Source of the DNA: a virus
Taxonomy: Duplodnaviria; Heunggongvirae; Uroviricota; Caudoviricetes
IMG/VR virus record: IMGVR_UViG_2698536317_000003
DNA: 56,811 nt
Reading direction: 5' to 3' (one strand)
A model generated the notes under the pieces. That model searched no databases and was not told where the DNA came from. It saw only the letters and a program-made list of their open reading frames with translations. The position numbers and the translations under genes were made by a program. Positions within the stretch are counted from its first letter, which is position 1; each line of letters opens with the position of its first letter. This document shows, in pieces, positions 24,388 through 44,885 of this stretch.

Positions 24388-25322
24388 TCTTCGCCATATT
24401 TAGCGTGCGCAACCTTATAGTTTTCTTGCGCCCGTTCTAATATTCGTTTGTTTAATATATTACCGTCTTCGTCAACTAATACGGTAATAGTGCTGCATTT
24501 GCAGTTAATTGAATTAGGGGATCTACTCCACCATTCGCGCTGCTCTTCTATGGTGTATGTTTTCCCGTGTCGCTGTGCGTGTGATAGCCTGGTAGTCGGT
24601 GACAATGCCGAAATGTGCATTTGCATAGTGCGCAAGTTAAGCTCATCCGATGCGGCTTCTGCCTCATCCATACGCGCTGTGCGTAACGCTGTGCATATTT
24701 CAGTACGGGCAATACGTTTGCACCTGTATAGCGGTAATTGCGTTTCCTGCTGCAATGTGCGCGCTATTTCTAGTGGGTTTAGGCCACGGGCCATGCCTTC
24801 GGTTAATCGGCGGGCCATATCCTTCTTGATCTGTGCGGTAAGCCCGCGCATCTCTTCAAATACACGGGTACGAACCAGGGCAAGGCGTGTGCGATATGTC
24901 TGACTGGTTAATACCGCAGACACTTCAGGGTAAGCCCTGGAATATGTGACTGACTGGTTAGCGAGGTTGGCATATTCCTGAGAAGTGCCGCGCTGATATG
25001 CCACCTTCACGTATTCCTGCCAGAACCAGAAGTTTTCCGGGTCTGTTAACTCGAATATTTCATCAATCATGTCGCTGGCGTCTTCCAGCAAATCATGTAA
25101 TTCGTCGATGTAGATCTGGAAGGTGTATTTTTTATTAACAGCCAGGGTATATTGTATTCTGTCCAGTATGGCGATATATGGATCGGCTACTTTCTTCAGG
25201 CAGGCTTTAAAACGCTTGATAGCACCAGACCTTAACTTCCCTGTCATGGTCGGGTCTTCGGTGTTAGATGGCATTATCGCGGCTGGAGGTATTCGCCTGA
25301 TTATCTTCTTCACCCTCATCAT
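24378..25322 (-). CDS. Head morphogenesis protein (SPP1 gp7 / Mu F-like)
   Basis: 314-aa ORF downstream of portal. Confidence 0.65.
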   Translation of the reverse strand: MMRVKKIIRRIPPAAIMPSNTEDPTMTGKLRSGAIKRFKACLKKVADPYIAILDRIQYTLAVNKKYTFQIYIDELHDLLEDASDMIDEIFELTDPENFWFWQEYVKVAYQRGTSQEYANLANQSVTYSRAYPEVSAVLTSQTYRTRLALVRTRVFEEMRGLTAQIKKDMARRLTEGMARGLNPLEIARTLQQETQLPLYRCKRIARTEICTALRTARMDEAEAASDELNLRTMQMHISALSPTTRLSHAQRHGKTYTIEEQREWWSRSPNSINCKCSTITVLVDEDGNILNKRILERAQENYKVAHAKYGEDWE

Positions 25323-26655
25323 CGTCCTCCTCTTCCGTTTCTACTTCACTGGCTGGGCCATCGTATCCGGCAGCCTCGCGGATCTCGTCACCGCTAAATA
25401 TTTCTTCACCAGTAGCCAGACAAGCCTGATTGATTTGTGCCATTTTGTCTGCGGCTTCCAGTAGCTCTGCTTTGGTCATGGCGTTAAGGTCGTCCCATAG
25501 CACTGATACATCTACTGGCATACTGATAAGGCGTAGATCTGCCATCTTGCGGAACAGATCTTCAATCTCGCCACCGATTTCCTCCCTGCGGGTCATGCAG
25601 CGGCTGTTGAAGTAACGCAGGTCTTCGGTTGATGCACGCTCTCCCTGTTGGTTCCCAACCAGGATGCGGGTTGGAATATCAACACCAGCGGCGGCGGTTT
25701 GCAGGTTTACATCATAGGTTGATGACGGGTCAGACACGGCAGTAACCAGCGGGCTTACTGTCGCACCCTGTAACGCCATCATTACGTCATTACCCTTATT
25801 CATTTCAGCCGTAGCCTCATTGAATCTTTCGCGTAACTCTGTAACGTCGCAATCGTATGTTGCAGCCAGGGAACGGAAGTCAATCTCTTTATCGAACGAA
25901 ATAGCAAGCTGACGCGCTGCGTTTTTCAGGAATGATTCACCACTACCGCCTTCCACTTTTTCCAGTGATACGAATGCGTTGTAGGAAGGTTCAAGGAAAG
26001 CGATGACATCATCAGAATAGTCGCCAAAGATGAATATGCGGTCAGGGTGGATCTTTCTGGCAATGGTCTTACTGTTAATGCGTTCTTTGTATTCCCACCA
26101 TGTCGGCAGGCCATAATTTTCACTGTCCGGGTCTTCTTCGAACTCCTTCGGTGTAAGAGCGCCAGCCCACACAGGGGTAAATTTGGCAATACCTACGCCT
26201 TTTGTCACTGGCTGATCCCACGGCTGGTTATCTCTGACATGAATCAACAGACCAGCATAACGACCAATGAGGCGGCGGCGATCACATTCAGCAACAGTGC
26301 GCCAAAATCTGTTGTTAAATTTCTTCTTGATTTCTCTTTCCCACGGTGTTTCCTTTTTCGCTTTCTCGTCTTCAGTTCCCTCAATCATCTTTGGCTTGGT
26401 GCGCCAGCAAGTCGTAACAATCTTTTCTACAGCACCGTGAGCGATGCCGCCGCGTCTGTACAGTTTGTATAGATCGTGGTACGTGATCTCTTCTTTGAAT
26501 CCGTATTCACTCCACGCAGCATCACGTTTGGCATCTATCCCCATAGTGAATGGGTTGGCTGCGGCATAGCGGGCGTAGGCCGCCTGGCGTTGTGACAAGG
26601 CAGCATTAACCGCCAATTCTAAATTGGATGGCATAATGTTTACTCCTGAATACAT
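25264..26655 (-). CDS. Portal protein
   Basis: 463-aa ORF after large terminase, acidic C-terminus; likely true start at internal ATG 26634 after AGGAG. Confidence 0.8.
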   Translation of the reverse strand: MYSGVNIMPSNLELAVNAALSQRQAAYARYAAANPFTMGIDAKRDAAWSEYGFKEEITYHDLYKLYRRGGIAHGAVEKIVTTCWRTKPKMIEGTEDEKAKKETPWEREIKKKFNNRFWRTVAECDRRRLIGRYAGLLIHVRDNQPWDQPVTKGVGIAKFTPVWAGALTPKEFEEDPDSENYGLPTWWEYKERINSKTIARKIHPDRIFIFGDYSDDVIAFLEPSYNAFVSLEKVEGGSGESFLKNAARQLAISFDKEIDFRSLAATYDCDVTELRERFNEATAEMNKGNDVMMALQGATVSPLVTAVSDPSSTYDVNLQTAAAGVDIPTRILVGNQQGERASTEDLRYFNSRCMTRREEIGGEIEDLFRKMADLRLISMPVDVSVLWDDLNAMTKAELLEAADKMAQINQACLATGEEIFSGDEIREAAGYDGPASEVETEEEDDDEGEEDNQANTSSRDNAI

Positions 26656-26712: not shown

Positions 26713-28197
26713 TTAAAATCCGCGCAGGCGCTTCGGTAACATGAGGCCTATCGCCTGTGGCTGGCTTAGTTCGGTAATACCCCATACCATTGCGTCCATA
26801 CGGTCAGGGGATTTTTTAGCGGTGGCTGGCACATATTCCATCATTTGATTTTCCAGCGTGTACAGGCTGCCAGTGTGGGCCACCCTTCCCTGCGCATATA
26901 GTGCCGATATTGGCTCTGCACGGGCGAATTTACCTTTGCTTGCGTGCACCTTAACAATGCGGCCTTTGAATCCGGCATTGCGTAGCGTGGCCTCTGCCAT
27001 GTCACCGCCCTGGTTGGTTTCGATAACCATCGCGTCAGCTTCATGGATGTCATATGCTTTCATGGATGCTTGCGCCCAGTCGTTAGGCGACATGCGGCCT
27101 GAATAGTCACCATCAACAGAATACTGAGCATTCTTACCGCCACCATATGCGGAACACGCCACGATCCCCGTTTCGTCAGATTCATCAGATGACGTTGTCG
27201 CCGGGTCGATGGCTATTACCGTGCGGATCTTGTCCTGCGTTATCTGCATCCGGTGCGCTGCGGTTATCATCGCTTCAGTCCACAATGCACCCTCTTCGTC
27301 GAATTTACGCGGGCGCTGCATGTACTGGGCCTCAAATGACCGCCTGTGTGCTTTCAGTCCAGCTTCATGGGCGTCATTGTGCTTTTTAGGCCATAGCCAG
27401 CCGTCTGGCAGGTTGTGAGGAATAGGGATAGCGAACTCGTTTTCAGGATACAAATCCCGGTAGTCAACGCTGTTGTCGATCTTCACTGGCAGGTTCAGGT
27501 GATACCATTTCTCCCCGCTTCCACCACGTAGCAGGTAGCCGGACAAATCATCGTAGTGGATGCGCTGCATGATGACGATAACAGGCGTCGTTTGCACTGC
27601 CAGACGTGAAGCAAGCGTGTCGTTATAGTTAGTGTTTACCTGCTTTCTCACCACGTCAGAGTAAGCGTCGGCGGGCTTTAATGGGTCGTCGATGATTAAC
27701 GCGCCGTTAAATCCTGGTTCCATATACCCCGCACGGAACCCAGTAACCTGGCCAAGCGATGAAGTTGCATACACGCCGCCACCGTATTCAGTCCACCACA
27801 TCGATTTTGAGTTTGCATCGTTGCGGATCTTCATGGGCCACATTGCCTGATACTCAGGCGTACAGATCATGTTTCTTACAGTTGAGGAGTTGAGTAGCGC
27901 CAGGTTGTTGGAATAGGAAACGTGAAGGAATCGTGTGCGGGGATTTATTGCGAGGGACCGCGCCATCATATTGATAGTAGCGATCATGGTTTTGCCGTAC
28001 CCTGGGGGGATGTTGATGATGAGTCGGGTTATCTCACCATTGACAACGCGTTGTAGTGCGTCGCGGATAGCTAAATGATGGCCTGAGATTAACATCTTCG
28101 TTCCGTTCGCTTGCTTGTAAAAGTAGCGATTGAAAAACAGGCCATCGTTTTCACATTTGGACTGAATAACTCGTTCTTTGATTGTCAGCATAATCAC
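26713..28197 (-). CDS. Terminase large subunit
   Basis: 494-aa ORF with Walker A PPGYGKT and C-terminal nuclease-like region. Confidence 0.9.
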   Translation of the reverse strand: MIMLTIKERVIQSKCENDGLFFNRYFYKQANGTKMLISGHHLAIRDALQRVVNGEITRLIINIPPGYGKTMIATINMMARSLAINPRTRFLHVSYSNNLALLNSSTVRNMICTPEYQAMWPMKIRNDANSKSMWWTEYGGGVYATSSLGQVTGFRAGYMEPGFNGALIIDDPLKPADAYSDVVRKQVNTNYNDTLASRLAVQTTPVIVIMQRIHYDDLSGYLLRGGSGEKWYHLNLPVKIDNSVDYRDLYPENEFAIPIPHNLPDGWLWPKKHNDAHEAGLKAHRRSFEAQYMQRPRKFDEEGALWTEAMITAAHRMQITQDKIRTVIAIDPATTSSDESDETGIVACSAYGGGKNAQYSVDGDYSGRMSPNDWAQASMKAYDIHEADAMVIETNQGGDMAEATLRNAGFKGRIVKVHASKGKFARAEPISALYAQGRVAHTGSLYTLENQMMEYVPATAKKSPDRMDAMVWGITELSQPQAIGLMLPKRLRGF

Positions 28198-28679
28198 ACC
28201 TCATCTTCTACTTCCTGAACGATGCGGGCGATTTCTTCTTTCGTTACTTCCACCTGGACGGGTGCTTCTTCCTTGTTACCTACAATCTCCTGTGTAACGC
28301 GTTCACCATATTTGCGCGGTTGCAGTTTTGCCAATAGCCATTTACGGGTTTCAATCATCAGTTGATGTCTGCGGCATTGGTCTTTATCGGTGTTCTCCGC
28401 TGCGTCGGCTATATCGATAATCTCATCAGCCAACACCTCAAATCCGATCTCCTTCGCGCGCGCGTACATGGTGGAAAACTCGGGCACATCACGGAACCAT
28501 TTGAGGATTGTTGAACGGTTCGGCATGTCAGGCATCTTCGAGATTTTGTTAATACTCTGACCGTCCGCCACCAGCTCACAGATCTCTAATGCCTTTTCTT
28601 CGGTATAGCCATGCGGACGGCCCGTCTTTTTGGCTGCTGGCTTTTTATCGTCAGCCTTTGCCTTTTTCGTGCGGGCCAT
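28194..28679 (-). CDS. Terminase small subunit
   Basis: 161-aa ORF with N-terminal basic/HTH region, overlapping large terminase start. Confidence 0.7.
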   Translation of the reverse strand: MARTKKAKADDKKPAAKKTGRPHGYTEEKALEICELVADGQSINKISKMPDMPNRSTILKWFRDVPEFSTMYARAKEIGFEVLADEIIDIADAAENTDKDQCRRHQLMIETRKWLLAKLQPRKYGERVTQEIVGNKEEAPVQVEVTKEEIARIVQEVEDEV

Positions 28680-28689
28680 AATTCACCTC

Positions 28690-28773
28690 TTAAAATTTAT
28701 TCACTATATATAAACACTCAATTAATGTTGCGAAGTATATTGATACACCCAACAAGCTGGATAGATCTTTCAT
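28690..28773 (-). CDS. Micro-ORF a (27 aa), MKDLSSLLGVSIYFATLIECLYIVNKF
   Basis: AAGGAAA RBS; last member of array before small terminase. Confidence 0.35.
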   Translation of the reverse strand: MKDLSSLLGVSIYFATLIECLYIVNKF

Positions 28774-28783
28774 TTTTTCCTTA

Positions 28784-28849
28784 TTACGATAAAGCCACCA
28801 TAGTGATAACAATCGCAACAACCAGGAAAAAGAAATCAAGCCATTTCAT
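28784..28849 (-). CDS. Micro-ORF b (21 aa) single-TM peptide MKWLDFFFLVVAIVITMVALS
   Basis: AGGAG RBS 7 nt upstream. Confidence 0.4.
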   Translation of the reverse strand: MKWLDFFFLVVAIVITMVALS

Positions 28850-28866
28850 TTTTTAACTCCTGCGAT

Positions 28867-28938
28867 TCAGTTAACACTTAAAAGCACCGCAACGATGACG
28901 ATCACTATAATCATGCAAAAGAAGTCTGCCTCTCTCAT
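28867..28938 (-). CDS. Micro-ORF c (23 aa) single-TM peptide MREADFFCMIIVIVIVAVLLSVN
   Basis: ATGA start/stop overlap with ORF d. Confidence 0.4.
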   Translation of the reverse strand: MREADFFCMIIVIVIVAVLLSVN

Positions 28939-29015
28939 CTTTTTAACCCTCGATAAAAATCAACGGCAATAACCGCAATAACAGCCACCAGCAATAGCAT
29001 TTCGTATGCGTTCAT
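28935..29015 (-). CDS. Micro-ORF d (26 aa) single-TM peptide MNAYEMLLLVAVIAVIAVDFYRGLKR
   Basis: ATGA overlap with ORF e. Confidence 0.4.
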   Translation of the reverse strand: MNAYEMLLLVAVIAVIAVDFYRGLKR

Positions 29016-29110
29016 TTGATGCTACCCATAACAAGGCCGATGATGATAATTATGGCGATAATGCCCAACATCATCCCGCACATAATCGCCAGTAATTCGA
29101 ATATATCCAT
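29012..29110 (-). CDS. Micro-ORF e (32 aa) single-TM peptide MDIFELLAIMCGMMLGIIAIIIIIGLVMGSIK
   Basis: AGGTGA RBS; internal ATG of 67-aa track ORF. Confidence 0.4.
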   Translation of the reverse strand: MDIFELLAIMCGMMLGIIAIIIIIGLVMGSIK

Positions 29111-29118
29111 GCCGTCAC

Positions 29119-29193
29119 CTATACAACATTCTTCCACCAGAAATAGATAATGACGGCGACCAACGACCACCAGATGAGATCGTAAATACCCAT
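29119..29193 (-). CDS. Micro-ORF f2 (24 aa) Trp-rich single-TM peptide MGIYDLIWWSLVAVIIYFWWKNVV
   Basis: GAAGG RBS. Confidence 0.4.
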   Translation of the reverse strand: MGIYDLIWWSLVAVIIYFWWKNVV

Positions 29194-29204
29194 TGCGAAT
29201 ACCT

Positions 29205-29279
29205 TCAGCTTTCAATGAATATCATGATCGCCAGCCATACAGCGACGCAGGCAGAAAGTATAATTAGCGGGTCAATCAT
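29205..29279 (-). CDS. Micro-ORF f1 (24 aa) single-TM peptide MIDPLIILSACVAVWLAIMIFIES
   Basis: GGGGTGA RBS. Confidence 0.4.
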   Translation of the reverse strand: MIDPLIILSACVAVWLAIMIFIES

Positions 29280-29292
29280 ATTGTCACCCCAT

Positions 29293-29394
29293 TTAATACT
29301 TGCTCATTACGGTTATCAGTACGGCTATAATAAAACCCACCAGAAATGCAGAAATACCGATTAATCCGGCAATGATGTAAGCGTCCATAATCAT
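29293..29394 (-). CDS. Micro-ORF h (33 aa) single-TM peptide MIMDAYIIAGLIGISAFLVGFIIAVLITVMSKY
   Basis: Start shares one nucleotide with stop of ORF i (TAATG). Confidence 0.4.
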   Translation of the reverse strand: MIMDAYIIAGLIGISAFLVGFIIAVLITVMSKY

Positions 29395-29456
29395 TACTTC
29401 CACAACAAAAACAATATTACAGCCGCCGCCATTCCGATAAATAAATAAGCGTCCAT
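29394..29456 (-). CDS. Micro-ORF i (20 aa) single-TM peptide MDAYLFIGMAAAVILFLLWK
   Basis: GAGGGTG RBS inside the 3-prime end of the HExxH gene. Confidence 0.4.
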   Translation of the reverse strand: MDAYLFIGMAAAVILFLLWK

Positions 29457-29458
29457 AA

Positions 29459-30010
29459 TCACCCTCGTTTAAAGCTCATCACACGCGGTACAAGCGCTTC
29501 TTTTGCTTTAGGCTTACGTTTGCCTTTCTTAGTGGGTTTTTCTTCTTCCTTCGGGTGTTCTGCCTGTTCTAACTGATCAAGTGTCTTCTCCACTACTTCA
29601 GCCGCCTGCATTGCTGCAACCTCCGCTTCGTTTGATTCAGCCAAGATCGGGAAGAATGCATCAAACATGCGCCCAATCAGGTAAGCATAAGTCTCGTTTG
29701 CGGGGTGGCTGTCATCAGTGGTAGCCAGCACACCGACATCACTTAAACAGTGAAAGGTAGCGTGGGCCACTTCATGGACCAGCGTGCCTAATTCATGGTC
29801 AAATACAGCAACAACATAGAAGTTACCGCCGCCTTCACCAGTACAGGTTAACGTTAATCCACCAGCAAGCTCGAAGCCGGGATCGATTGGAATTCCTGCC
29901 TTTTCGCAAAACTCGTAGAACATGTCGCGGGTCGGGCAGAAGAAAACTGTTGTATGCTCAAAAAGCGGAATCTTGAATTGAGGCAACTTAATGCCTTTAG
30001 CCTTAGCCAT
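29459..30010 (-). CDS. HExxH-motif protein (putative zinc metallopeptidase-like), 183 aa, basic C-terminal tail
   Basis: Motif LVHEVAHATFH; located directly downstream of Rz/Rz1. Confidence 0.5.
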   Translation of the reverse strand: MAKAKGIKLPQFKIPLFEHTTVFFCPTRDMFYEFCEKAGIPIDPGFELAGGLTLTCTGEGGGNFYVVAVFDHELGTLVHEVAHATFHCLSDVGVLATTDDSHPANETYAYLIGRMFDAFFPILAESNEAEVAAMQAAEVVEKTLDQLEQAEHPKEEEKPTKKGKRKPKAKEALVPRVMSFKRG

Positions 30011-30346
30011 CAGAATATTCCTCTATCCTGAAAAATATAACCCCCGCAAAACTGGACACCGCAGGGAGTGAAAACAGCTATAAAACACTGAAAACGGCGC
30101 TGCGTGAGTACCGTTTCCAGAATTTTATAAAACTGGACCTGCTCAACATCTCTGGTAAACAGATCCGAACGCTCTTCCTACGCTTGGCAGGTGAGTAATG
30201 GCGCTTTCTTCTACCCAGGTAGCGCCTGACCTGTTAATGGGACTGTTGATCCGGTATTACGTGTTTTTGAATTTCCGCCGTCGCTCGCGGGAAGGATTGG
30301 CCCGGTTATGGCTGGCTAGCAGAAACGGCGACACGTCCACGCGCTG

Positions 30347-30817
30347 TTATTCTTTGCGTAAGCACTGCGTTTTGATGTAGCCCTGAAGCGCGGTTATCTT
30401 CGCGTCTTTCTCTTTTAGTTGTTCTCTGAGGGATAAATAAGATTGTCGAGCAGAGGCATCAAGTTCGCAGGTGGCTCCATCAATGCGGCTGGCGGTTCCG
30501 GCGGGGTCGGACACTCGCACGGGTATTGCGTTGACGCGCAACCGGATAGTACCGTTATCAATGCCAGTGCGCAGATCGGCAATGTCAGATCTGATAGCTT
30601 TAATCTCATCGTGATACCTCTTATCAAGTTTTGACAGTTCGGCGTTTCGCTCCTTCATCTGCTGAATAGTGTTACTTGCCGTTTTCAGTGCGCCTTTCGT
30701 TACCGTGACTTCTTCCTGCAACCTTGCCGCCTCACCCTGGTAATAACATGTTACGGCGGTCAGTCCGGCAATAATGCAAACAACAACGGCGATGATTAAC
30801 GTCTTCACCTTGTCCAT
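30347..30817 (-). CDS. i-spanin (Rz)
   Basis: N-terminal TM plus periplasmic coiled coil; resembles recalled lambda Rz; contains embedded Rz1. Confidence 0.8.
30415..30609 (-). CDS. o-spanin (Rz1), lipoprotein embedded in Rz in another frame
   Basis: MRLKL...VLSGCAS lipobox and proline-rich [23 protein letters not shown] resembling lambda Rz1. Confidence 0.75.
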   Translation of the reverse strand: MRLKLSDLTLPICALALITVLSGCASTQYPCECPTPPEPPAALMEPPANLMPLLDNLIYPSENN

Positions 30818-31296
30818 TTCTCACCCCATTCGCAAACGGCATATTCAACCTCGCGGCGGTTTACCAGGCCTTGCCACTTCTTACCGCCAGCGTATACCCA
30901 GCGTTTAAGCTGTGCGCACGCTTCTGATTTCTTGCCGTCATTGAGTAGCTTTAATAAGGTTGATGTTTTGAAGTTGGTTGCGCCTACGTTATAGGCGAAT
31001 GAATAAAGTGCTGCGCGGGTAAAATCTGATATTTCGACTTTAATATAGGGATCGATAGCTTTTGCGGTTTTATGCAGATCTTTGTTTAACAAAGCATCGC
31101 ATTCTGATTGCGTGTAAGTTTTACCAAGCATGATGTCTTTTCCGGTGTGACCATGACAAACAGTCCACACACCAACAACATCACGATAAGGATCGTACTC
31201 CACGCCCTCTAATGGCTTAATCATCACCGCCGCAATTGCTATCGCCCCACCAGCCGCCGCCGCAACAATCTTGTTTTTCAGCGATTGGCTAATCAT
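30805..31296 (-). CDS. SAR endolysin (phage lysozyme with N-terminal signal-anchor-release domain)
   Basis: N-terminal Gly/Ala-rich TM followed by E...D...T lysozyme catalytic motif. Confidence 0.85.
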
Positions 31297-31497
31297 TTAC
31301 TTGTTCCCCATTCGCGCGTCGTGTTCCTCTTGCGCTCGCTTGTTCTCCTGTGATTTAAAGTAATAATTAACGGCAAATGTGCCTACGGTTGATAAAATAC
31401 CCACAAAGACGGCAATGTCATTGATGGTTATCGCGCCGAAAAAAGCAGTTACGGCCCCAGTCACATACGCGCACGCCTCCCGTATTCTGTCGAACAT
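31297..31497 (-). CDS. Holin (small two-TM, pinholin-like)
   Basis: 66-aa ORF with two hydrophobic helices and charged C-terminus, immediately upstream of endolysin. Confidence 0.75.
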   Translation of the reverse strand: MFDRIREACAYVTGAVTAFFGAITINDIAVFVGILSTVGTFAVNYYFKSQENKRAQEEHDARMGNK

Positions 31498-32204: not shown

Positions 32205-32405
32205 TCAATCATTTTTGCGCTCCTTAATGGCTCGCATGATGTTAATACGCATAGCGTCACTGAATGCGTATATCGTAATGAAAGGCCAGAAGACTAGCTC
32301 GAACCAAATAATGCCGTCACTATCAACAGCTTTCTGAAAAGCGCCCATTAAAATGACACCAGCCAGGTAAATTATAACTACCGCAACAATAATGCATTCA
32401 ATCAT
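32205..32405 (-). CDS. Small membrane protein (MIECIIVAVVIIYLAGVILMGAF...), full-length copy
   Basis: Starts inside 227-bp duplication copy 1 and extends into unique sequence. Confidence 0.4.
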   Translation of the reverse strand: MIECIIVAVVIIYLAGVILMGAFQKAVDSDGIIWFELVFWPFITIYAFSDAMRINIMRAIKERKND

Positions 32406-32529
32406 CTTCACCCCCAAGATCATGATAAATATCGTTAGGGTCTTCACCATGTTCCTCGCAAAAACGCTCAAATAGCGCCCAATTTTCAGAAAGAAACATG
32501 ATTAATAAATTTTTATACCACTCTTCCAT
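32398..32529 (-). CDS. Acidic small protein MEEWYKN...GGEDD (43 aa), copy 1
   Basis: GAGGA RBS; identical copy at 32625-32756. Confidence 0.4.
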   Translation of the reverse strand: MEEWYKNLLIMFLSENWALFERFCEEHGEDPNDIYHDLGGEDD

Positions 32530-32539
32530 TTAATCATCC

Positions 32540-32632
32540 TCAGTCACTATCAACAGCTTTCTGAAAAGCGCCCATTAAAATGACACCAGCCAGGTAAATT
32601 ATAACTACCGCAACAATAATGCATTCAATCAT
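32540..32632 (-). CDS. Truncated small membrane peptide (30 aa) created by the duplication junction
   Basis: Same N-terminus as 32205-32405 ORF, stop created at repeat junction. Confidence 0.3.
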   Translation of the reverse strand: MIECIIVAVVIIYLAGVILMGAFQKAVDSD

Positions 32633-32756
32633 CTTCACCCCCAAGATCATGATAAATATCGTTAGGGTCTTCACCATGTTCCTCGCAAAAACGCTCAAAT
32701 AGCGCCCAATTTTCAGAAAGAAACATGATTAATAAATTTTTATACCACTCTTCCAT
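32625..32756 (-). CDS. Acidic small protein MEEWYKN...GGEDD (43 aa), copy 2
   Basis: Identical to copy 1; start abuts stop of upstream ORF. Confidence 0.4.
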   Translation of the reverse strand: MEEWYKNLLIMFLSENWALFERFCEEHGEDPNDIYHDLGGEDD

Positions 32757-33011
32757 TTAATCATCCTCATCGTCTTCATGTTCAGCCAGGAACTCATCAA
32801 CCACGCGGCAAGTCACTGGCGGGATGTATTCGAAATCATCAGAATCAAGATCAAGCGTCCGGCTGTCGCCGTCATCGTCCAGCGTATTCATCCCTAACTC
32901 ACCGAAAGGGCCATACCCAATATGGCCCAGGTATTCGCATCCAGTAGTAAAGCCAGGGTATTCGCCTTTGCACCAGATCTTGTATAGCTTACTTGATGCG
33001 CTCAATTTCAA
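32757..33011 (-). CDS. Hypothetical protein (84 aa, acidic C-terminus)
   Basis: ORF in small-gene block. Confidence 0.35.
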   Translation of the reverse strand: MKLSASSKLYKIWCKGEYPGFTTGCEYLGHIGYGPFGELGMNTLDDDGDSRTLDLDSDDFEYIPPVTCRVVDEFLAEHEDDEDD

Positions 33012-44145: not shown

Positions 44146-44411
44146 ACACCGAACATCCCATTCAGTCCGGCGAACAATTTCCGCCAGTGGTTTTCAGCAT
44201 AAGCCCGGAACGGCTTAACGCGAACATTGCGGGCCTTCAGTTCAATATCATCAAAGTAGCGCGGTTCGATGATTGTTCCGTCCAGGTATTTAACCACTAG
44301 CGGGCGCTCTAGATCGTCATACATCTTATTCAGTACAACCAGGCCAGGGTCATCACGATATTCAGGCAACACAACAAGATCACCAGCCTTTGCATCCCAT
44401 GTTTTCATCAC
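44136..44411 (-). CDS. Hypothetical protein (91 aa)
   Basis: ORF in early-left block. Confidence 0.35.
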   Translation of the reverse strand: MMKTWDAKAGDLVVLPEYRDDPGLVVLNKMYDDLERPLVVKYLDGTIIEPRYFDDIELKARNVRVKPFRAYAENHWRKLFAGLNGMFGVWL

Positions 44412-44645
44412 AGCAATCCTCTGAAAATAAAGCTAACCAGCGCAGCAAATGCGCCACAAGAAACAACCACAAACAGGAAGCAAATAATGCAAAACGCGAC
44501 AGTCACAATATCCTTACCGACTTTCATGATTGGCCTCACATGTTAGTAATGAGTTTAATGATCGCTACCGTGATATAAAGAGATACGCTGAGATACAGCA
44601 CGGCGATAGATAAAGCCGCAAGCAATGCGGCAATTTTTGCAAAGC

Positions 44646-44885
44646 TCATTTGCCACCCTCCGCAATTAACTTATCAAGCCATTTGTTATTAGCCAGCCGT
44701 TCTTTGTCACTACCAAAACTGTTTCTGCTTAGAAGCTCCTCTTTTGTTAATTGCGGCCACTTATCCGTCCACCCAGCCGACGTATCGAACTCATACAGAC
44801 CGCCGTCAAAAGTAACAAAGTCATCAGCCGTGTCAGGCACTTCTTTATCAACTTCTTTTTCTTCGATCATGATTTGATACCTCAT
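44646..44885 (-). CDS. Hypothetical acidic protein (79 aa)
   Basis: ORF in early-left block. Confidence 0.35.
   Translation of the reverse strand: MRYQIMIEEKEVDKEVPDTADDFVTFDGGLYEFDTSAGWTDKWPQLTKEELLSRNSFGSDKERLANNKWLDKLIAEGGK

Follow-up and report, generated by a model that had tools for sequence, protein, structure and literature searches.

The stretch of DNA analysed here, 56,811 nucleotides (nt) of IMG/VR record IMGVR_UViG_2698536317_000003 and referred to below as the window, derives from an Escherichia coli prophage of the mEp021/mEpimmI group (Caudoviricetes). The group consists of Nus-dependent non-lambdoid siphoviruses and has been reported by its describers to be prevalent in the human gut (PMC11893012). 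Positions 28690-29456 (767 bases, minus strand) contain nine ATG-started open reading frames (ORFs) of 20-33 codons, which lie back to back with a changing reading frame and tile 92% of the region (Table 1). The gaps between the ORFs are 13 nt or less, and three junctions overlap, as TAATG at ORF1/ORF2 and as ATGA at ORF5/ORF6 and ORF6/ORF7. A purine-rich Shine-Dalgarno (SD)-like motif is found 5' of every start, and the grand average of hydropathy of the nine products ranges from 1.05 to 2.17. The GC content of the array is 38.9%, compared with 46.4% for the window, ranking 13th among 1121 sliding windows, and 57% of the second codon positions on the coding strand are T. A preliminary description of the locus had reported the nine minus-strand ORFs, the AT-richness and the start/stop overlaps, and all of these are present as it stated. 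In 2000 dinucleotide-preserving shuffles of the same 767 bases, the mean number of hydrophobic ATG-started ORFs is 1.1 (maximum, 5) and the mean coverage is 12% (maximum, 57%), and so the nine ORFs and their 92% coverage lie far beyond the shuffle expectation. Comparable hydrophobic ORFs occur elsewhere in the window at about 0.25-0.45 per kb per strand. The array is real, conserved and essentially unannotated, and its tandem, coupled, fast-turnover organisation is unusual.

Table 1. Micro-genes of the array, followed by the genes that border it and by the lysis genes. Positions are those of the window; aa, amino acids; TM, transmembrane; SAR, signal-anchor-release; the number of loci is that in which the family, or for micro-gene 1 the same peptide, is found.
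Feature	Position	Strand	Length	Sequence	Remarks
Micro-gene 1	29394-29456	-	20 aa	MDAYLFIGMAAAVILFLLWK	family A3; same peptide in 6 loci
Micro-gene 2	29293-29394	-	33 aa	MIMDAYIIAGLIGISAFLVGFIIAVLITVMSKY	family B; 39 loci; omega 0.19
Micro-gene 3	29205-29279	-	24 aa	MIDPLIILSACVAVWLAIMIFIES	family E; 41 loci; omega 0.28
Micro-gene 4	29119-29193	-	24 aa	MGIYDLIWWSLVAVIIYFWWKNVV	family F; 28 loci; omega 0.28
Micro-gene 5	29012-29110	-	32 aa	MDIFELLAIMCGMMLGIIAIIIIIGLVMGSIK	family H; two GxxxG motifs; 21 loci; omega 0.13
Micro-gene 6	28935-29015	-	26 aa	MNAYEMLLLVAVIAVIAVDFYRGLKR	family I; ATGA overlap with micro-gene 5; 42 loci; omega 0.21
Micro-gene 7	28867-28938	-	23 aa	MREADFFCMIIVIVIVAVLLSVN	family J; ATGA overlap with micro-gene 6; 15 loci; omega 0.15
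Micro-gene 8	28784-28849	-	21 aa	MKWLDFFFLVVAIVITMVALS	family K; 40 loci; omega 0.10
Micro-gene 9	28690-28773	-	27 aa	MKDLSSLLGVSIYFATLIECLYIVNKF	family P2, allelic with P
HExxH protein gene	29459-30010	-	183 aa		phrog_1365; upstream array boundary, coupled to micro-gene 1
Small terminase gene terS	28194-28679	-			PF20901, Sf6-type; downstream array boundary, coupled to micro-gene 9
Holin	31297-31497	-	66 aa		two TM domains; family PF16080
Endolysin (lysozyme)	30805-31296	-			SAR-like N-terminus; lysis cassette
Rz	30347-30817	-			embedded Rz1-like lipoprotein ORF (LSGC lipobox); lysis cassette

Relatives of the locus were fetched from IMG/VR, 48 of them via terS and further contigs via the 183-aa HExxH protein, giving 44 distinct arrays. 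Among these relatives the distance from the HExxH gene to terS varies from 322 to 1158 bp, and the slot between the two genes holds 3-13 hydrophobic micro-ORFs with a typical coverage of 71-94%. The products fall into about 21 peptide families of 20-47 residues, whose order is conserved and whose genes are present or absent as wholes, one by one; at nearly all loci the array ends with P or P2. Of 5,426 complete E. coli genomes, 35 carry the array, each in a single copy; seven phage records carry it as well, and no further instance occurs in those collections. A 2.2-kb segment surrounding it matches NZ_CM136176.1 at 100% (99.9% for the array itself) and matches six mEp phages and MagusPhagus at 85-89%. 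The NCBI pipeline places no annotation in the array, the authors of the mEp021 annotation left a gap there, and PHANOTATE-style annotations record a few pieces of it as 'hypothetical protein', often with wrong extents. The array is not mentioned in the paper describing the phage group (PMC11893012).

The pattern of substitution across the relatives is that of protein-coding DNA. The pooled Nei-Gojobori ratio of nonsynonymous to synonymous differences (pN/pS) is 0.215 in frame, with values for the families from 0.06 to 0.28, compared with 0.97 and 1.48 in the two shifted frames, and the variable sites at codon positions 1, 2 and 3 number 127, 79 and 244, respectively. The omega value is 0.06 for family P and 0.23 for family P2. 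What is conserved is thereby the ORFs themselves and not the nucleotide sequence only. The peptide of micro-gene 3 stays identical in relatives where the neighbouring HExxH protein drops to 63% identity, and the start of micro-gene 2 that is conserved among relatives is its second ATG, at 29388, giving a product of 31 aa. The calculated energy of the duplex with the anti-SD sequence averages -5.95 kcal/mol at 356 micro-ORF starts and -2.83 kcal/mol at the remaining ATGs of these sequences (p = 1e-62, Mann-Whitney test). The spacing is between -14 and +18 nt at 337 of 354 junctions, the commonest values being -4 (the ATGA overlap), +8 and -8. These results are in good agreement with the earlier suggestion that each ORF has its own SD sequence and that the genes are translationally coupled. 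The 17 longer gaps mostly contain recognisable dead copies, in which the start has been lost or an internal stop has arisen, and a few contain a conserved hairpin spacer. About a dozen copies among roughly 370 are pseudogenised, including those of family F in loci L006 and L026. Both flanking genes, terS and the HExxH gene, have an omega of 0.08 at comparable synonymous divergence. The constraint on the micro-genes is thus weaker than that on their essential neighbours, and single genes occasionally die. Since the ORFs are retained across relatives together with purifying selection on the amino-acid sequence and with ribosome-binding sites, which is what is generally expected of protein-coding genes, the nine ORFs are almost certainly protein-coding genes that would be translated.

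A conserved non-coding spacer of ~68 nt lies between families K and P in L001 (mEp021), L006, L007, L037, L038, L051 and L035. It contains a GGAC-GCGCAT-TTT-ATGCGC-TTCC hairpin, with about -10 to -18 kcal/mol for the spacer, and is not present in the window. Coding on the opposite strand has also been considered and rejected: one of the antisense frames tends to be open, which is to be expected where the second codon positions facing it are rich in T; this frame contains stops in several families, and it is unable to tile across genes that lie in different frames.

The position of the array immediately upstream of terS would suit a non-coding element, either a packaging (pac/cos) site or a structured leader of the terminase mRNA, with the ORFs arising only by coincidence. 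This is not how the region behaves, however, because its length changes by whole-gene steps over the range given above and because the substitutions are codon-periodic, with an in-frame pN/pS far from the value of about 1 seen off frame. An Rfam search of 28000-31000 at E<=1 gives no match, and terS is of the Sf6/P22-type class, in which pac lies within or near terS itself. A non-coding element is therefore the least probable of the readings considered here and is effectively excluded. Another possibility is that continuous translation from the HExxH gene to terS is what matters, for coupling or for protection against Rho, and that the peptides are harmless by-products of this translational relay, hydrophobic only through the T-richness of the DNA. 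In agreement with this, the HExxH/terS junction is directly coupled in distant relatives, the coupling geometry is preserved at every array junction, and the final stop codon of the array precedes the terS ATG by about 10 nt and lies immediately 5' of the terS SD. However, missense changes are selected against (omega is about 0.2 in frame and about 1-1.5 off frame) and the acidic N-terminal residue is invariant within families. Moreover, 700-1100 nt would not be needed for a relay, which a deletion would serve more simply, and every relative nevertheless keeps at least three genes; and untranslated gaps of 53-97 nt left by pseudogenes are tolerated. We therefore consider it quite improbable that the array is merely a relay.

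The preliminary description had proposed, from recurring N-terminal sequences, that the ORFs are a paralogous family amplified in tandem. Relationships are indeed found among families J, K and N, between I and D, and between ORF1 (A3) and A1, and F/F2, L/L2 and P/P2 are allelic pairs that occupy one position each. The remaining families have in common only a general plan, which shuffling tests cannot separate from homology, and so the proposal stands for the related families named above and not for the others. A 29-nt DNA repeat is common to the starts of ORF1 and ORF2, and one of 27 nt to the 3' ends of ORF1 and ORF4. Micro-gene 1 accordingly looks chimeric, with the repeat of the ORF2 start at its 5' end and a 3' end resembling that of ORF4, and chimeras and fusions are present in other genomes as well. 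These observations suggest that a repeatedly duplicated and recombined module fits better than a single tandem-amplified family.

Nearly all families follow a plan in which an acidic residue near position 5 is followed by a hydrophobic helix and a short neutral or basic tail. An Asp or Glu residue is present within the first seven residues in 19 of 21 families, at position 5 in 12 of them, and is invariant or only exchanged between Asp and Glu within nearly every family. The uncharged stretch spans 13-30 residues, the best 15-residue Kyte-Doolittle window has a value of 1.9-3.6, and the mean charge is -1.14 at the N-terminal flank and +0.52 at the C-terminal flank. Replacements within families are mostly swaps among Ile, Val, Leu, Phe, Met, Ala and Thr. 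For the nine window peptides the Eisenberg mean hydrophobicity is 0.32-0.74 and the hydrophobic moment is 0.02-0.28; these values resemble those of IbsC, YohP and the Pf3 coat protein and are unlike those of the phenol-soluble modulins (PSMs). Both scales agree with the earlier description of a short polar patch at the N-terminus, which is mostly acidic here, ahead of a single hydrophobic helix. Several families also contain GxxxG or small-xxx-small motifs, which are typical of helix-helix packing. The micro-gene products are very probably membrane peptides, predicted to pass once through the inner membrane. The coat protein of phage Pf3 has the same plan, with an acidic N-tail, one TM helix and a basic C-tail, and it inserts N-out/C-in in a Sec-independent manner that depends on YidC and the proton motive force; it differs in being a 44-aa structural protein of a filamentous virion, and it has no sequence relationship to the micro-peptides. 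By this analogy and by the positive-inside rule, most of the peptides probably insert with an N-out/C-in topology. ORF3 was also considered as a lipoprotein, since its LSAC sequence resembles a lipobox; this was rejected because the n-region is acidic, the h-region has only five residues and positions -1 and -2 are replaced in natural variants.

In searches of Pfam, PHROGs, NCBIfam and PADLOC, the best hit of any peptide is no better than E = 0.03 and none is above a curated cut-off, which upholds the earlier view that the array is not assignable to a known family. Eight of the nine exact window peptides are absent from a collection of 15 billion proteins, and a profile of family H finds only four matches among 1.84 billion representative proteins, all of them from this array family. 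In a literature library of incomplete coverage, no description was found of tandem arrays of small TM genes in phages, nor of any phage late operon in which as many as 13 genes of 20-47 codons, each for a single helix, form a coupled array. The peptides have fewer than 50 aa, one predicted TM helix and no other domain, and these are the features of small membrane proteins, which are a functional class and not a homology family. In functional terms, the peptides are predicted to be small membrane proteins like those of bacteria, and by sequence they belong to no known family. YohP of E. coli (27 aa) and its kin are likewise shorter than 50 aa, with one hydrophobic helix, no catalytic domain and Eisenberg hydrophobicity and moment in the same class, and YohP is inserted post-translationally via the signal recognition particle (PMC7549839). 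In contrast to the micro-genes, however, YohP and its kin are chromosomal, monocistronic and stress-induced, are not found in coupled arrays and have no sequence similarity to the micro-genes.

The preliminary description also noted a resemblance to type I toxins, and the peptides could accordingly be killer peptides of a prophage toxin-antitoxin or addiction module. Type I toxins such as Ibs, Ldr, TisB, Hok, ShoB and DinQ are single-helix hydrophobic peptides of 19-50 aa, the size and hydrophobicity of the micro-peptides equal those of IbsC and similar toxins, and some of the toxins are multicopy, as are the ibs and ldr genes in E. coli. A type I toxin gene has a promoter to itself, an antitoxin in the form of an antisense RNA and an mRNA whose translation is repressed, and none of these is found at the array. 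There is no Pfam or NCBIfam match at E<=1 to Hok/Gef, Ldr, Ibs, TisB, Fst or others, no Rfam antitoxin small RNA at E<=1 in 28000-31000, and no plus-strand promoter-like site within the array, the last of these being weak negative evidence from a consensus scan. Strong SD sequences and polycistronic coupling are the opposite of translationally silenced monocistrons. The resemblance therefore does not extend beyond size and hydrophobicity; the type I toxin reading is largely refuted on architecture and is very improbable, and it too is effectively excluded.

Tandem 20-45-codon genes, each with an SD sequence, are known from the staphylococcal psm-alpha operon and from multi-peptide leaderless bacteriocin operons such as that of aureocin A70, and the array has the same arrangement of tandem micro-genes in one operon. 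The psm-alpha and bacteriocin peptides are amphipathic, secreted and cytolytic, are encoded by four genes or fewer in Gram-positive bacteria and are not phage late gene products. A PSM- or bacteriocin-like nature was rejected because the Eisenberg moment and hydrophobicity of the window peptides given above contrast with 0.44-0.60 and 0.12-0.20, respectively, for PSM-alpha3 and delta-toxin. The holins, antiholins and lysis regulators of pinholin/SAR-endolysin systems, such as those of phages 21 and N4, are, like the predicted products of the array, small phage inner-membrane proteins, and they act via depolarisation (PMC12642591). Known holins and antiholins differ in having about 60 aa or more and usually two or three TM domains and in being encoded within the lysis cassette. 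The micro-peptides match no Pfam or PHROG holin model, and the holin of this phage is a separate gene. Runs of small genes of unassigned role have expanded inside a compact late or packaging operon in actinophages as well, as in the Microbacterium Cluster EC phage Quhwah, where 17 ORFs lie between the large terminase gene terL and the portal gene (PMC7302621). The Quhwah genes are not described as single-TM genes of fewer than 35 codons, and they occupy another junction in an unrelated phage group.

The boundaries of the array suggest how it arose. The ATG of micro-gene 1 lies 2 nt past the stop of the HExxH gene, the stop of micro-gene 9 lies 10 nt before the terS ATG and just upstream of the terS SD, and the arrangement of SD, stop and ATG takes the same form at both ends. 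Homologues of the 183-aa protein with 35-42% identity are encoded in P22-like phages (ST64T Orf129 and epsilon34 gp70), where the array is absent, and it is also absent beside homologues in prophages of Pantoea, Citrobacter, Kluyvera, Mixta, Serratia and Salmonella. In these distant relatives the HExxH gene abuts terS or is followed by other genes of normal size, and in the Kluyvera, Mixta and one of the Citrobacter prophages it ends 2-3 nt before terS. Because array-less homologues abut terS so closely, the array appears to have grown, in the mEpimmI lineage only, out of an HExxH/terS junction that was coupled ancestrally. The 183-aa protein itself is probably a zincin-like metallopeptidase, for which structural support is weak; its HExxH and NETY motifs are invariant and its basic C-terminal tail is conserved. 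Its homologues hold the same slot after the lysis genes and before the terminase genes in P22-like phages, and they adjoin sieA in P22 and HK620 (hkcC).

The array was earlier placed between the lysis cassette and the small terminase gene. The small terminase gene does adjoin it, and the large terminase and portal genes follow downstream of terS; the lysis cassette, however, is not adjacent, since a 336-nt spacer and the 183-aa HExxH gene lie in between, and so the array is 336 nt and one gene downstream of Rz, outside the position of a holin gene. The N-terminus of the endolysin has a weakly hydrophobic, Ala/Gly-rich segment flanked by lysine, which fits the description of a SAR sequence, and together with the two-TM-domain holin the cassette appears to be a pinholin/SAR-endolysin system. 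Alignment of the spacer upstream of the HExxH gene reveals a conserved weak terminator-like hairpin and no clear promoter.

Several other features of the window and its relatives were seen. The gene at 25264-26655 (minus strand) carries the RefSeq name 'anti-CBASS protein Acb1 family protein' in a 100%-identical record, and Pfam (PF06381) and the mEp021 annotation identify it as the portal protein, so that the RefSeq name is probably wrong. HNH endonuclease genes interrupt the lysis-to-terminase region at differing points in L054 (2752-3273), L066 (1094-1666) and mEp013, and the region appears to be an insertion hot spot. At 32316-32769 (plus strand) a 227-nt unit is present as a perfect tandem duplication, which doubles a plus-strand 27-aa ORF and overlaps a 45-aa hydrophobic minus-strand ORF (32540-32677). 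Three more small hydrophobic ORFs (37, 39 and 21 aa) directly follow one another in the early region at 44330-44649 (minus strand); this second run is kept at 76-89% in all seven related phage records, and its counterpart in mEp021 is annotated as a putative toxin-antitoxin subunit and an anti-RecBCD gene.

In related P22-like phages the accessory content of this slot varies, temperate phages commonly encode exclusion proteins located in the membrane, and the array, like many morons, is richer in AT than the genome. It is therefore conceivable that the peptides are made by the prophage and guard the lysogen, for example by blocking DNA entry at the inner membrane, or alter host physiology. However, junctions of 18 nt or less leave no room for promoters or terminators, and coupling ties the genes to terS and to the late gene that precedes them. 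There is no enrichment of promoter-like sites, the lone own-strand hit inside the array in a consensus scan is weak and unconserved, and no convincing site of the kind expected of an exclusion gene with its own promoter is found in or just upstream of the array, although such scans cannot exclude expression. The known exclusion function of the group maps to the Lpp lipoprotein elsewhere in the genome (PMC11893012). Expression of the array from the lysogen is accordingly an improbable explanation.

These observations lead us to favour, with a probability of roughly 0.6, the hypothesis that the array is a set of coding micro-genes within the late unit and that their membrane peptides serve as accessory factors. 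The nine micro-genes would belong to the late (lysis-packaging-head) transcription unit, because the array lies between lysis and packaging genes of the same strand and has no room for promoters. In the repeating unit, an SD and an ATG would precede two to six polar residues, among them a conserved Asp or Glu; a hydrophobic segment of 13-27 uncharged residues would come next and, at the end, a short tail that is neutral or basic. The array may have been built at the tight coupled HExxH/terS junction as copies of this unit arose by duplication, recombined and diverged, and it would turn over as whole genes are lost and gained. Because junctions of -14 to +18 nt let ribosomes pass along, ribosomes would hand over from micro-gene to micro-gene, and the peptides would be made together with the terminase late in infection. 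Each peptide would then insert post-translationally into the inner membrane as a single helix, in most cases N-out/C-in, the acidic N-tail being driven across the membrane as in the Pf3 coat protein. Because array content varies freely, the peptides may act one by one and not as one obligate complex; a gene number of 3-13, one-at-a-time presence or absence and tolerated chimeras and fusions all fit an accessory and modular nature. As accessory factors that the phage could do without, the peptides may thus change the condition of the cytoplasmic membrane or attach to TM segments of host or phage membrane proteins.

Among specific roles, a tuning of the membrane potential that would affect the timing or robustness of lysis is preferred, because the phage appears to use a pinholin and a SAR-endolysin, which fire on depolarisation. 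SAR-endolysins are released upon depolarisation (PMC12642591), and YohP, a 27-aa protein with a single TM helix, partly dissipates the membrane potential (bioRxiv 10.1101/2025.05.06.652344). The link to lysis is drawn from these analogies and is tentative, being rather unlikely to hold in itself.

Several points weigh against this hypothesis of late accessory membrane peptides. The constraint on the micro-genes (omega of ~0.2) is weaker than that on the flanking genes, and some hydrophobic cores are short, family I having only 13 uncharged residues. Family E is acidic at both flanks, and a B-E fusion in one relative would force opposite orientations on its two helices, and so a uniform N-out topology is not assured. 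The lysis cassette and the array are set apart by the spacer and gene described above. Position is the ground for late expression, a weak terminator-like hairpin precedes the HExxH gene, and no promoter was identified in the array or in the spacer. Selection for the movement of ribosomes towards terS, that is, avoidance of polarity, could by itself favour open frames, and it would not account for the missense constraint. In vivo translation, membrane insertion and location, topology, timing of expression, independent action and a phenotype such as an effect on lysis are all deduced from sequence.

After the favoured hypothesis, the readings rank in descending order as ligands of host TM helices, exclusion factors of the lysogen, translational relay, type I toxins and a non-coding element. 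In the first of these, the array would be an arsenal for anti-defence or host takeover, in which each peptide is a TM-helix ligand or decoy and puts a different protein of the host inner membrane out of action, for example a transporter or the membrane effector of a defence system such as abortive infection, and turnover would reflect an arms race. Content varies cassette by cassette between near-identical phages, as in known counter-defence loci, many divergent families are built on one plan, several of them contain the helix-packing motifs noted above, and the genes are individually dispensable. However, the omega values are uniformly low (0.06-0.28) and give no hint of diversifying selection, gene order is strictly collinear, there is no PADLOC or other match, and a late-operon position would be unusual, since anti-defence genes generally act early. 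An arsenal against host proteins is for these reasons unlikely, if less so than a function in the lysogen. In a broader form, which we regard as speculative and only somewhat less doubtful, the coupled junction would be a micro-gene nursery that supplies up to 13 independent single-helix effectors, each with a different inner-membrane target, for example the pinholin of this phage, a transporter or an effector of host defence. If this is true, the nursery would be to the membrane what anti-defence gene islands are elsewhere, and standard annotation would not reveal it.

Small membrane proteins with a single helix form a class that is recognised but poorly understood, and many of them are thought to lie unnoticed in phage genomes. 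The array is an unusually clean case, with about 21 families, clear purifying selection and 3-13 genes per coupled array. About 1 kb of constrained coding sequence per phage genome can escape gene callers that apply a length cut-off. The array offers a natural system for the birth, duplication and death of micro-genes at a defined junction.

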